DNA from: Phycisphaera sp.
GTDB lineage: Bacteria; Planctomycetota; Phycisphaerae; Phycisphaerales; SM1A02
Length of the DNA stretch: 64,000 nucleotides
Direction: 5' to 3'
Assembly: GCA_016124975.1 (NCBI GenBank)
Contig: WGMP01000011.1
Location: 5,693 to 69,692 of the forward strand
Part shown: positions 1-5,069 of the stretch, piece after piece
Numbering within the stretch: the first letter of the stretch is position 1
Layout of the letters: every line of letters begins with the position of its first letter
Made by a program: the position numbers and the translations under genes
Notes under the pieces: generated by a model
Seen by the model: only the letters and a program-made list of their open reading frames with translations
What the model was told of the DNA's origin: nothing
Databases searched by the model: none

Positions 1-209
1 CATCGATGCCGCACCAGCAGTTCAAACTGCCGCCCGCCTTCGGCAAGGTGTTCGTGAAAGTCCGCATCTTCCGACTTGGCCATGGGCCAGTTCTGCAGAA
101 TGAACGGGGCGCGCGCAGGGCAGTTCGCGAGCAGCTCGAACAGCCCTTTCGTGAGGTAGCGGGGAGGCTCCGACTCTTGAGTTCCGTTTCGTGTCATGTC
201 TTGTGACAT
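1..209 (-). CDS. Hypothetical protein, N-terminal part only (gene continues beyond the left window edge); fourth gene downstream of the restriction-like operon
   Basis: Absent from the ORF track because it is open-ended. A reverse-strand ATG at 209-207 reads MSQDMTRNGTQESEPPRYLTKGLFELLANCPARAPFILQNWPMAKSEDADFHEHLAEGGRQFELLVRHR with no stop to position 1. Its composition is balanced, unlike the overlapping + strand ORF 6..206. It begins 60 nt after the helicase stop on the same strand. Confidence 0.4.
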   Translation of the reverse strand, partial: MSQDMTRNGTQESEPPRYLTKGLFELLANCPARAPFILQNWPMAKSEDADFHEHLAEGGRQFELLVRHR

Positions 210-269
210 AGGATCAAGGCCCCTACGCGGACTCCTCGGACCAGGGCATCGCCGTTGACGCGCCTTCCC

Positions 270-2810: not shown

Positions 2811-4410
2811 CGCTGGCGTCCATGGGGCGGATCGTCGACTCGATAAACGCGACGTCTGCGGAGGAAAGCCCGTACTTCTTGAAGAGCTTCGCGTCAGTCC
2901 ACGCACGATCCATCGGCAACTTCGGCACGAATGCGAACCGCTCGCTGTAGAGATGCTGGGTGTTCGTCCGCAGCGAAACCAAGAACCGTACGAACCGTGT
3001 CCGAAGATACGCCATGAGGTTCGCCGCTTCCTCCTCCGACTGGAACCGTCCGACTACGAGGTAGGTCTCCGTGCATGCGGTGCCAGGCGGACCAGCCAGA
3101 ATGCGTGAGAACACTCGCCGCATGCCGTTCTTGTCGGTTTGCCCGCCATGTTCGCTGGCCGTGCTCGAGAGGAACACCTTCCACTCGTCCACCCAGTCGG
3201 TGTTTCTCGGGATCTCGTCGCGCTCGATGAAGCCCATCCCTCCGTTCTGGTAGAGGCGCACCGCACGCTTCATGCCCTTCGCCGAAGGAGCACCGCGGAA
3301 GTTTGTTCGCAGGCTGAAAGGCTGGATGGGCGCGACGTCACCCGCCATGCTCTCGAACTGACGCCGGGAATCCACGGCGAGAACTCGCTCCAAGATTGGG
3401 ATCGCCTCGTTGTAGCGGACGAGGATGTCGTATTCGTCCAGATGCCGCTCCAAGGGCGGACGCTCGACGCCGCCGACGGTGGTGGTCACCCTGCATCGCC
3501 CGTTGAAGGACGCATCCCAAAGGAAGTACGAAATGCCCCCCGCGATGTCAACGCCGCCGAAGACTTCACGCGAGTCAGGGAAGTCCGCGAGGACGCGGAG
3601 TCGCCGGTCGGACAGCATCTCCTGCCGGAACTCATCGAGGCCACGGCCGCCTGCGAACCATCGTGACGGTGTCACCATCGTCAGGTATCGAGGATCAAGG
3701 GCCTTCGCGGTCTGGATGAACTTCTGGTAGATCGGCATGGCGAAGCTGCCGATCGCATCGCCTCCGCTCTGCCCGAGTTGGTAAGGCGGGTTACCGATGA
3801 TGACGTCGAACTGCATGTCAGCTCCAAGAATCTCGGCCAAGCGCTGCCTCGGATCGGACGTATGCAAGAGCGCGTAGGCATGCGTCTCGAGGCCGGGACC
3901 TCGGTCGTAGTCGCGGCGATTCGCACCGCAGTACACACACTTGCCCTCGTCCCACTCGTGCTCCGTCCGCTCGAACCAGATGTTGCCCGCGTCCGTCTTG
4001 AAGCCCCGTGCGACCGAGTGCTTTCCCTTCGCGAACTTCGAGCAGTACAGGCTGCGACGCGCCAGCAGGCTGGTGAGGTGCGTGATCCCGATGCCGAAGA
4101 CCTGCTCGGTGAGGATGTGCTCGACCCGCTTCTCGAGGTCGGGCATTCGCTCCGCAAGTCCGGTGTTCAGGCGGCGCGTGATCTCGCGCAGGAAGACGCC
4201 CGACTTCGTGCAGGGGTCGAGGAAGCGGACTGTCGGGTCAGACCAGATGCTCGCGCCGCCATGGGACTCGGCCCAAGCGGCCGCGAGGGTGTCGAGCATC
4301 CGGTTCGCGAGCTCGGGAGGCGTGAACACCTCGTCGTTCGACAGGTTCGCGATGCAGGTGAGGACATCGGGATTGCGGCCACGGAGCGAGAAGCGGCCCT
4401 GCGCGGTCAT
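2803..4410 (-). CDS. N6-adenine DNA methyltransferase (Eco57I/TaqI-like gamma class with C-terminal target-recognition region)
   Basis: Start at the internal ATG (MTAQGRFSL) at 4410, forming an ATGA overlap with the upstream gene's stop. It contains EVFTPPELANRMLD, the motif I-like FLDPCTKSGVFL, and catalytic FDVIIGNPPYQ. The C-terminal tail (...LFKKYGLSSADVAFIESTIRPMD) is typical of this MTase family. Confidence 0.9.
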   Translation of the reverse strand: MTAQGRFSLRGRNPDVLTCIANLSNDEVFTPPELANRMLDTLAAAWAESHGGASIWSDPTVRFLDPCTKSGVFLREITRRLNTGLAERMPDLEKRVEHILTEQVFGIGITHLTSLLARRSLYCSKFAKGKHSVARGFKTDAGNIWFERTEHEWDEGKCVYCGANRRDYDRGPGLETHAYALLHTSDPRQRLAEILGADMQFDVIIGNPPYQLGQSGGDAIGSFAMPIYQKFIQTAKALDPRYLTMVTPSRWFAGGRGLDEFRQEMLSDRRLRVLADFPDSREVFGGVDIAGGISYFLWDASFNGRCRVTTTVGGVERPPLERHLDEYDILVRYNEAIPILERVLAVDSRRQFESMAGDVAPIQPFSLRTNFRGAPSAKGMKRAVRLYQNGGMGFIERDEIPRNTDWVDEWKVFLSSTASEHGGQTDKNGMRRVFSRILAGPPGTACTETYLVVGRFQSEEEAANLMAYLRTRFVRFLVSLRTNTQHLYSERFAFVPKLPMDRAWTDAKLFKKYGLSSADVAFIESTIRPMDASDD

Positions 4411-5069
4411 GCCGGCCTCCCCTCGGCGGATCTTTCGGCGGCGAGCTCGGCCACCGACTGCGGCGGGTAGGTCTTGACCGGGGTGAAGATCTGGTGCTTG
4501 CCGAGCTCGGCAAACAGCGATCCCTCCGCGGTGAATGCCGCTGTCTGGGTGAGCACATCGAGCCGGAAGTCCCGTCGCTGGAACCTGCCCTTGCCGAGGT
4601 AGCCCCACTCGGCGAAGACGATCGGGGATCCGCCCGCGGTGAGCATCGTCAGCGCGTCGCCGTGCACGAGGTTCTGCGCGAGGACATGCCGCGCGGCGCG
4701 ATAGAGGTCGTCGGATTCCTCGAGGCCGAGGTAGGTGGCGAAGACCTCGAGCATGTTCTTCGCACACTCGGCGATGTTGTCGGCCAGGAGCTCGACCCCG
4801 TAGGCGCACATCAGGCCAAGGAGCGCGTAGTGCCGCTTCTCAAAGTCCGACTTCCCGAACTTCAGCTCGACCGCCGCGAGCTTGCGCTGCAGGATCCGCA
4901 CGAGGAAGTTGCCGCTGCCACAAGCGGGCTCGAGAAAGCGGGCGTCGATGCGCTCGCTCTCGCCCTTCACGAGGTCGAGCATGGCGTCGACCATCCACGG
5001 AGGGGTGAACACCTCTCCGTGGTCTGCGACGCGCTGCTTTGACTTGATGAGGTCCATCGATCGATTCAC
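4407..5069 (-). CDS. Short SAM-MTase-fold protein lacking the catalytic NPPY motif (degenerate or truncated MTase paralog)
   Basis: 220 aa with HGEVFTPPWMVDAMLDL, motif I FLEPACGSGNFLV, motif II-like AYGVELLADN and LVHGDAL. Where the neighbouring MTase has FDVIIGNPPY, this protein reads FRLDVLTQTAAF. The codon at 5069 is GTG; an ATG (MDLIKSK) lies at 5057. It is translationally coupled (ATGA) to the next gene. Confidence 0.7.
   Translation of the reverse strand: MNRSMDLIKSKQRVADHGEVFTPPWMVDAMLDLVKGESERIDARFLEPACGSGNFLVRILQRKLAAVELKFGKSDFEKRHYALLGLMCAYGVELLADNIAECAKNMLEVFATYLGLEESDDLYRAARHVLAQNLVHGDALTMLTAGGSPIVFAEWGYLGKGRFQRRDFRLDVLTQTAAFTAEGSLFAELGKHQIFTPVKTYPPQSVAELAAERSAEGRPA

Follow-up and report, generated by a model that had tools for sequence, protein, structure and literature searches.

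What kind of machine is encoded by three tightly packed genes at the left end of a stretch of 64,000 nucleotides from Phycisphaera sp. (contig WGMP01000011.1)? We call this whole stretch the window and give all positions in it, unless another locus is named. The genes, g1, g2 and g3, occupy 270-5069 on the minus strand, and we think that they probably form a self-contained, ATP-dependent restriction-modification (R-M) system with three subunits. This reading draws directly on their domain content, the invariant residues of their motifs, the linkage of the three genes, the fusion of g3 to g2 in some relatives, and the variable C terminus of g2. Formation of a complex, translocation, cleavage, and all the roles of g1 are what we infer from these observations. 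A first-pass annotation of the letters had described the locus as an R-M-like operon of four genes carried on a mobile element and lying outside the textbook layouts. Its coordinates, overlaps, gap, and quoted motifs for the four minus-strand open reading frames (ORFs) are all correct on the sequence, and the cassette indeed follows none of the textbook Type I, II, and III layouts. The four-gene operon and the mobile element fared less well, as discussed below.

The three genes are arranged so that the starts of g2 and g3 each overlap the end of the preceding gene. The first, g1 (4407..5069), encodes a stand-alone protein of 216-220 amino acids (aa) that resembles gamma-class methylases. It shares an ATGA overlap (4407-4410) with g2 (2803..4410), an Eco57I-family N6-adenine methylase of 535 aa. 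The end of g2 overlaps by 8 nucleotides (2803-2810) the start of g3 (270..2810), which encodes 846 aa, with a nuclease-like domain fused to a motor. The three ORFs are all intact. A fourth gene on the same strand, g4, starts at 209 after a gap of 60 nucleotides (210-269) and runs out of the window.

The modification function of the system would be carried by g2. Its Pfam match to Eco57I is strong (E = 1.4e-33), that to MmeI_Mtase reaches only E = 0.053, and in PADLOC it matches the models MTase_II (PDLC03375, E = 5e-41) and REase_MTase_IIG (PDLC03626, E = 1.4e-37, over residues 199-530). The catalytic motif IV, NPPY, is found in the translation at residues 207-210 (3781..3792, minus strand). 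It is invariant in an alignment of 12 sequences from three subfamilies, where K69, G71, and the whole run N207-P-P-Y-Q211 never vary. Other motifs depart from the canon: motif I, which is DPCTKSG in the window and follows the pattern F-x-D-P-x-x-K-S-G, has lost its first glycine in all subfamilies, and the strand of motif II ends without an acidic residue (GIGIT in the window, with equivalents in all subfamilies). Beyond the catalytic part, the C-terminal third (residues 301-535; 2806..3510, minus strand) is a presumed target-recognition domain that ends in a conserved helical region. Column conservation falls from 0.64-0.97 over residues 1-300 to 0.37-0.65 in this third. Pfam recognizes no family there, and TaqI_C does not appear even at E <= 10. 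Hence, the first-pass view of g2 as a complete NPPY N6-adenine methylase with a TaqI-like C terminus holds for NPPY and Eco57I, does not hold for the C terminus, and must be qualified for motifs I and II. Profile searches revealed no nuclease domain in g2, and a PDB sequence search with it gave nothing useful.

Two further features of g2 concern its N-terminal half. An insert with an H..CxxC..H pattern resembling a zinc ribbon lies between motifs II and IV (residues ~126-180; 3870-4035, minus strand); it is present in the subfamilies with split genes and missing from the fused Firmicutes proteins and the Legionella-type proteins. In one related locus (L019), g2 is apparently split into an ORF with motifs X and I (1024-1548) and another that begins at NPPY (1541-2587), with an apparent overlap of 8 nucleotides, which could be a true split or a frameshift. 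The PADLOC methylase model PDLC03375 likewise begins at NPPY. Because both the apparent split and the model fall at this point, they suggest that the methylase fold has an N-terminal half that can be separated as a module.

The companion protein g1 is more puzzling: why would the system keep a methylase-like protein that lacks the catalytic motif? The probable start of the gene is the ATG at 5057 (MDLIKSK, 216 aa), in agreement with the homologues and the public gene call, so the ORF described initially is right and its length of 220 aa is probably slightly too long. The protein has motif X (EVFTP), motif I (FLEPACGSGNFL), motif II (YGVEL), and motif III (HGDAL), with EWGY standing in place of NPPY. 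Its profile matches are weak, to MmeI_Mtase and N6_Mtase, and cover motifs X and I only. Across the three subfamilies, E19, V20, T22, E47, P48, G51, G53, N98, and N133 are invariant, and W155 nearly so. All share EVFTP as motif X, FLEPxxGxGNFL as motif I, and an acidic residue in motif II (YGxE/D); none of the members in the alignment has NPPY, and the position of motif IV is occupied by (E)W instead. The original description of g1 as a methylase fold without a catalytic motif therefore applies to the family. Comparison of g1 with the N terminus of g2 by hhalign gives a probability of 96.7%, which marks g1, at the level of sequence profiles, as paralogous to the N-terminal portion of g2. The members of its family stand alone and measure 200-310 aa (310 representatives at E <= 1e-30). 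No PADLOC model is dedicated to g1: the protein matches only generic methylase models, it alone gives weak partial matches to the Type I methylase models, and its Legionella homologue has no match at all. One homologue is named "type III restriction endonuclease subunit M" by NCBI.

The restriction function would fall to g3, whose N terminus carries a nuclease-like domain of the GIY-YIG superfamily. The motifs quoted for it in the first-pass annotation (IYAYTIDD, LLKIGQT, GEWMRC, MRFGKT, and DEYH) are all present, and so are both of the modules it had proposed, a T5orf172 module ahead of a superfamily 2 (SF2) helicase. When the first 170 aa are scanned alone, T5orf172 matches at E = 4.9e-9 (37 bits, for a cutoff of 20) and MUG113 at E = 9e-5. 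Both families belong to the GIY-YIG clan, and Mrr_cat does not match. The domain spans residues ~17-115 (2466..2762, minus strand). Its GIY-YIG set of residues (Y21, Y23, K35, G37, R46, and E95) is invariant in an alignment of 81 sequences from three subfamilies, and in the AlphaFold2 model residues 21-110 have block averages of 83-92 for the predicted local distance difference test (pLDDT), with the order beta-beta-alpha-beta-alpha-beta-alpha. A T5orf172 protein of phage ICP1, Gp88, also keeps the catalytic arginine and glutamate and was reported to be an origin-directed nuclease (PMC8263062).

This domain is followed by an SF2 ATPase/translocase core of Snf2-like type (residues ~125-640; 891..2438, minus strand), identified by a Pfam match to ResIII (E = 2.9e-5), by invariant motifs, and by Foldseek. 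The Walker A GKT lies at residues 165-167 (2310-2318, minus strand), DEYH at 264-267 (2010-2021, minus strand), SGTPF at 328-332, and QxxFR at 558-562. In the same 81 sequences, the invariant positions of the ATPase are K161, R163, G165, and K166; D264, E265, and H267; S328-F332; and Q558, F561, and R562. The best matches of the model among PDB structures are Chd1, ISWI, the SWI2/SNF2 core of Sulfolobus, ZorD, and RapA, with restriction enzymes further down: SauUSI at rank 11, LlaBIII (4xqk) at rank 32, and HsdR of EcoR124I (4be7) at rank 48. The model, built with the alignment of 81 sequences, has a pLDDT of 72.3 and a predicted template modeling score of 0.65, and shows the N-terminal domain and both RecA-like lobes with confidence; from a shallow alignment of ~80%-identical sequences, pLDDT was only 49. 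In the structure search with this model, the top viral matches suggest that relatives are carried by viruses. Two of them are annotated as Eco57I or adenine methylases (A0A6J5KT33 of an uncultured Caudovirales, 1138 aa, and A0A1V0SG34 of a Hokovirus, 1324 aa), and the other two are an uncharacterized protein of 691 aa from Synechococcus phage ACG-2014f and an unnamed protein of 1336 aa.

Could g3 hide a classical nuclease at its other end? Pfam returns nothing for residues 421-846, which include the second RecA-like half and the C-terminal domain, and past residue 600 none of the acidic residues is invariant among the 81 sequences. To judge from its sequence, g3 is thus a protein without a hidden C-terminal PD-(D/E)xK nuclease, as had been proposed. 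The reading of the locus as an ordinary Type III system, which the first-pass annotation had left as the alternative, can be set aside, since T5orf172 is matched and the standard C-terminal nuclease is not found. What the C terminus offers instead is a helical region (residues 641-846; 273..890, minus strand) that is the most conserved part of the protein and presumably docks or couples it to g2.

How general is this association of three genes? An exact-match look-up of g3 retrieved a public contig of 15,169 bp (L001) that extends beyond the window on its left, and a genome scan found close relatives in more than 588 species. We took the best 80 of these (77-81% identity) as a set of related loci, searched them by tblastn with the proteins of the neighborhood, and clustered the flanking ORFs within 5 kb (66 loci downstream and 49 upstream). 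About 60 of the 80 loci, from many phyla, contain g1-g2-g3 together and in the same order, which means essentially all those with enough flanking sequence. The proteins of g4, an Mrr gene, a 285-aa ORF, a DUF5131 gene, a 182-aa ORF, and a Prim-Pol gene, all neighbors of the cassette on L001, were not found beside it elsewhere in these loci, with the lone exception of one locus (L014), where an Mrr-like match of 28% identity lies upstream. Families of flanking ORFs recur in at most 2 of the 66 downstream regions and in at most 5 of the 49 upstream ones. Because no other gene recurs on either side, the functional unit is three genes, and gene 4 is a neighbor.

The pattern of conservation across the loci is informative on function. 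The median pairwise identity is 85% for g3 (90% over residues 600-846) and 76% for g1, and in g2 it is 72% over residues 1-300 versus 38% over residues 301-535. A hypervariable end that reads DNA, in an otherwise conserved machine, is a signature of the specificity modules of R-M systems. The same layout extends to distant relatives, which consist of a protein of 230-274 aa, an Eco57I methylase of ~480-536 aa, and a GIY-YIG/DEAD protein of ~810-870 aa. Such triads are found on plasmids of Variovorax (47%), Mycobacteroides chelonae (43%), and Legionella adelaidensis (27%), and in the chromosome of Legionella pneumophila within an island with csrA, alpA, and an integrase. In L. pneumophila (L092, 2343-2606), a small HTH_3 gene precedes the cassette and could encode a controller (C) protein, which would set the timing of R-M expression; the copy in the window has no equivalent.

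In Enterococcus, Lactococcus, and Listeria the cassette is reduced to two genes, a g1-like gene (234-248 aa; 40% identity to g1 in E. faecium) and then a single protein of ~1445 aa that combines g3 and g2. Its first ~670 residues align to g3 with 33% identity (over residues 9-666), and its residues 965-1445 align to g2 with 25% identity. Residues 715-796 of g3 align weakly (a segment of 14.6 bits, E = 53) to residues 856-915 of the fused protein, just before the methylase part. Such a fusion speaks for g3 and g2 operating as a single machine. Nor is the cassette rare: the family of g3 has at least 8000 clusters, the fused Firmicutes family also at least 8000, and the Legionella/Bdellovibrio-type family 2852. 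According to the source names, the best 120 relatives of g3 (80-99% identity) come from Gammaproteobacteria, Verrucomicrobiota, Gemmatimonadetes, Nitrospira, and Burkholderiales. Cultured strains or complete genomes are among the carriers (Ancylobacter vacuolatus, Pararhizobium haloflavum, and Verrucomicrobia IMCC26134), copies of the cassette are on plasmids of Sphingopyxis, Rhizobium, Deinococcus, Corynebacterium, and Burkholderia, and the E. coli genome collection gave no match.

From these elements we propose the following mechanism. The methylase g2 would read a specific, probably asymmetric, DNA sequence with its variable C-terminal domain and would protect the DNA of the host by N6-adenine methylation at its NPPY site. 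The highly conserved C-terminal helical region of g3 would dock on g2. At an unmodified site, the Snf2-like motor would hydrolyze ATP and pull double-stranded DNA, and the N-terminal T5orf172/GIY-YIG-type domain would then cut, or nick, the DNA. Since the T5orf172 fold has a single active site, two complexes would probably have to converge for a double-strand break, as they do in Type ISP and Type I enzymes. The third subunit, g1, would be obligatory; having lost catalysis and kept the motifs for binding S-adenosylmethionine (SAM), it would most likely pair with g2, in the way of the second Mod subunit in Type III, and would supply or sense SAM. That the R-M models of PADLOC match both g2 and g3 supports the assignment of the whole to R-M.

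The relation of g1 to g2 also invites a bolder idea. The signature for SAM binding, in g1, and the catalytic signature, in g2, are spread over two proteins that are always linked, in subfamilies that are ~27-40% identical. The two proteins might be complementary halves of one SAM-dependent switch, an idea that we hold tentatively and regard as rather less than probable. If it is right, g1 could give SAM binding in trans, or it could be a "reader" of SAM or adenine that licenses methylation or restriction.

Several observations weigh against an active R-M system. The methylase activity of g2, on which protection would depend, is not assured, because in every subfamily motif I is short of its first glycine and motif II has no acidic residue. 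T5orf172 domains have reportedly been domesticated as DNA binders, to go by the title of one paper (PMC8096241). The model of g3 is moderate overall, with a C-terminal region that is mostly helical and of low confidence. Solved restriction motors show no match to g3 at the level of sequence, in either sequence or profile searches of the PDB, and NCBIfam gives no match for it, including no HsdR or Type III model. The exact architecture was found as a characterized type in no paper or database, in a survey that took in the full-text literature and did not cover REBASE. The nearest studied analogue, the DnmA-YeeB-YeeC operon of B. subtilis, neither protected against three phages nor restricted transformation (PMC9973331).

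These points lend themselves to other explanations. One is that methylation marks self without any cleavage, as in BREX: the motor would block or strip replication or transcription complexes on unmodified DNA, and the T5orf172 domain would only bind or nick. The best structural matches of the motor, which are chromatin remodelers and RapA and not restriction helicases, are what such a system would lead one to expect, and g2 has weak matches to PglX models. Moreover, phage genomes show no depletion of the DnmA motif, and the conclusion of the authors was that any defense by systems of the YeeABC type must differ from canonical R-M (PMC9973331). Yet Y21, Y23, R46, and E95 are invariant across subfamilies that are ~30% identical, which fits a retained enzymatic role, and no other component of BREX or DISARM is linked to the cassette, so that we find this explanation unlikely. 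One may also ask if the cassette serves for the most part as a selfish, addictive, or epigenetic module, or is a relic in this genome, with a methylase that serves gene regulation and a g3 whose activity is irrelevant or lost. The DnmA of B. subtilis acts as an orphan methylase derived from a non-functional R-M relic (PMC9973331), and ~85% identity across phyla, on plasmids and in islands, indicates frequent horizontal spread. This we judge improbable: the three ORFs of the window are intact, their g3 is 99% identical to another public copy, and the motif residues are strongly constrained in all three proteins. A selfish R-M module would in any case still be R-M in its mechanism.

The nuclease could, finally, come from gene 4, which would make a four-gene system of the kind that the first-pass annotation had in mind. 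The gene is on the same strand, 60 nucleotides past g3. On L001 it is complete (9454-11625) and encodes 724 aa with a DUF2779 match (E = 1.1e-6), and by eye its protein has a D..ExK-like motif at the N terminus, a CxxC cluster, and an exonuclease-like motif (FFDVET), which together could provide PD-(D/E)xK-like and exonuclease-like parts. Against this, g4 is found by tblastn in 0 of the 80 related loci, copies of the cassette on plasmids and chromosomes end at g3, no downstream ORF family passes the 2 of 66 loci given above, and PADLOC has no match for g4; its sole plasmid match is a weak one, in Prosthecochloris. We therefore rejected gene 4 as a part of the system, a role that we consider highly improbable; it may be a separate defense or repair gene. 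The three-subunit R-M system, with the nuclease-like domain at the N terminus of its motor, is the reading that we favor and compare with known systems.

The best reading of the comparison is that the cassette is closest in its mode of action to Type ISP and Type I enzymes, and the data support the view that it fits no textbook Type I, II, or III layout. Like the Type ISP enzymes LlaGI and LlaBIII, it has a nuclease, an SF2 motor on double-stranded DNA, a gamma-class N6-adenine methylase, and a target-recognition domain, which we expect to act jointly. The fused Firmicutes relatives even have the same order from N to C terminus (nuclease, motor, methylase, and recognition domain) as that given for Type ISP, and for LlaBIII in particular (PMC3553950), and the LlaBIII structure is, as said, among the fold matches of the motor. 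The differences are nonetheless substantial. The nuclease of the cassette is of T5orf172/GIY-YIG type, whereas that of Type ISP is Mrr/PD-(D/E)xK (PMC2790908). Type ISP enzymes are single polypeptides, whereas the window has three ORFs and the fused Firmicutes forms still have a separate g1-like gene, that is, a dead-methylase subunit that is always present. The motor of g3 is structurally nearer to Snf2 remodelers, and no sequence similarity to LlaBIII was detected by phmmer or by a profile search of PDB sequences, where 4xqk was not returned.

With Type I systems (HsdR/HsdM/HsdS), the cassette shares a translocating motor subunit apart from the methylase, a conserved core of motor and methylase with a hypervariable specificity part, and the same embedded accessory genes, DUF1016, RhuM, and Fic, which are reported within Type I operons (PMC9881135). 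It differs from them in having no linked HsdS, with the recognition domain inside g2, and in the N terminus of its motor, which is T5orf172 in g3 and a RecB-like nuclease in HsdR.

Type III complexes have two methylase-fold subunits, and their Res subunit has a PD-(D/E)xK nuclease at the C terminus. The cassette resembles Type III systems (Mod2Res, such as EcoP15I) in its methylase with its own recognition domain in its "Res"-like SF2 ATPase, g3, with the ResIII match, and in its two methylase-fold proteins. However, g3 has no C-terminal PD-(D/E)xK domain; what it has is a nuclease-like domain with a different fold, at the N terminus. The Mod of Type III is a homodimer in which both copies carry the catalytic motif IV, whereas g1 and g2 are distinct genes and g1, with NPPY in none of its members, is presumably inactive.

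Type IIG enzymes (Eco57I or MmeI-like) are single chains with a PD-(D/E)xK nuclease and no ATPase that cut at a fixed distance, unlike the cassette, where an ATPase subunit is obligatorily linked. The PADLOC model for this type, PDLC03626 (1359 positions), nevertheless matches both g3 (model positions 179-403, E = 1.7e-30) and g2 (positions 1010-1359), and hence it represents a fused relative of helicase and methylase. The matches to this model and to PDLC03375 (348 positions) are partial and moderate, and the fused Firmicutes protein itself reaches only 138 bits, so the model represents a distant cousin and not this family. Given such partial matches of g2 and g3 to Type IIG and Type II methylase models, automated annotation would probably list the cassette as an R-M system, under an ill-fitting label. 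The core genes of BREX (PglZ/BrxC), DISARM (DrmA/B), and MADS (the mad set) are not linked to the cassette, which has only weak partial matches, of g1 and g2, to the models of PglX, DrmMI, and mad2.

The closest precedent is the YeeA-YeeB-YeeC system, for which Morgan et al. proposed in 2009 that the methylase provides specificity and host protection and that the helicase and GIY-YIG proteins cut (PMC2731913). The operon, in which YeeA is also called DnmA, occurs in defense islands, and a system of this type was reported to be active in Vibrio crassostreae (PMC9973331). Both systems bring methylase, SF2 helicase, and T5orf172/GIY-YIG activities together in one conserved operon. Judging from the descriptions, they are set apart by the T5orf172 domain, which is at the N terminus of the helicase in the cassette and is the C-terminal domain of a separate protein in YeeABC; by the methylase, a 535-aa member of the Eco57I family versus an MmeI-like enzyme; and by g1, which has no described counterpart there. 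To combine a methylase with a helicase and a GIY-YIG/T5orf172 protein is thus, in general terms, an idea from 2009 (PMC2731913). The cassette is a so far uncharacterized R-M-like variant, set off by another nuclease fold, by its remodeler-like motor, and by the invariant pseudo-methylase that accompanies it. The first-pass description of the system as under-described is right in that we found no study of this architecture, and it goes too far in that NCBI names the parts, if generically, and PADLOC matches some of them.

These results may have implications beyond this genome, since hosts of relatives include Listeria, Enterococcus, Staphylococcus, and Legionella pneumophila, with fused relatives in phages and giant viruses. 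If the cassette is an active R-M system, it would add a class of restriction enzymes in which a GIY-YIG-type nuclease is coupled to a remodeler-like motor. It would explain part of the unassigned N6-methyladenine motifs in methylomes, and it would be an added barrier to the transfer of plasmids and phages in Firmicutes of clinical and industrial relevance. The invariant pseudo-methylase g1 raises a concrete and easily testable question on how methylation and restriction are coupled. Should g1 and g2 indeed be the two halves of a SAM-dependent switch, a DNA methyltransferase would here be built and controlled in a new manner, and the machine around it, with its GIY-YIG nuclease joined to a Snf2-like motor, would merit an R-M type of its own.

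The cassette is set among other candidate defense genes. On L001, gene 4 is followed by a gene for a 343-aa Mrr_cat protein (11784-12812), which matches the PADLOC single-gene candidate PDC-S02 (E = 5e-131), then by an overlapping ORF of 285 aa with no family match (12787-13641), and then, on the other strand, by an FGE-sulfatase gene. The cassette, gene 4, the Mrr gene, and the 285-aa ORF are separate members of one small defense island. Directly upstream of g1 the window has a DUF5131 gene (Gp37/Gp68-like; 5261-6223, minus strand), the 182-aa ORF, a small HTH_7 gene (6988-7200, minus strand), and a gene for a Prim-Pol protein of 725 aa (7197-9374, minus strand). These last two adjoin the island and suggest the remnant of an integrative or satellite-like element. 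From ~9.6 kb onward, the genes are ordinary polysaccharide-related and metabolic ones. In windows of 600 bp, the G+C content of the island is slightly lower (0.59-0.71, mostly 0.62-0.67) than that of the rest (0.65-0.74), and no tRNA, integrase, att site, or flanking direct repeat was found at its borders. Hence, the mobile element first proposed here keeps the adjoining Prim-Pol and helix-turn-helix genes and the G+C content in its favor and loses the integrase, tRNA, and repeats. Mobility is not shown for the copy in the window, though other copies lie on plasmids and integrative islands, and "defense island of foreign origin" is a fair label for the locus. Elsewhere, copies on plasmids and islands adjoin Mrr/PDC-S02, TIR, MazF, AbiE, and integrases, and the copy on a Rhizobium phaseoli plasmid (L084) has DUF5131 and TcmP genes immediately upstream.

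The cassette itself also accommodates genes. Sixteen loci have extra genes inside the cassette, either before or after g2, in which Pfam recognizes YhcG/DUF1016, Fic with a helix-turn-helix domain, RhuM, PDDEXK_3, Schlafen AlbA_2, Bro-N, KilA-N, PIN, and an AAA_21/PHP ATPase. One case is an insert of 5 kb between g1 and g2 (L066, 3422-8359), which contains a truncated duplicate of the N terminus of g2, a 934-aa PHP/AAA_21 ATPase (OLD/AbiEii-like), and an AlbA_2-like protein. Three unrelated genomes have, between g2 and g3, a conserved ORF of 111-126 aa with 63-73% identity (L019, 2711-3052; L050, 9600-9980; L074, 3041-3376); the L050 copy, the one searched, has no Pfam match. Finally, the DUF5131 gene of the window contains a short internal tandem duplication of 26 nucleotides close to its 3' end.

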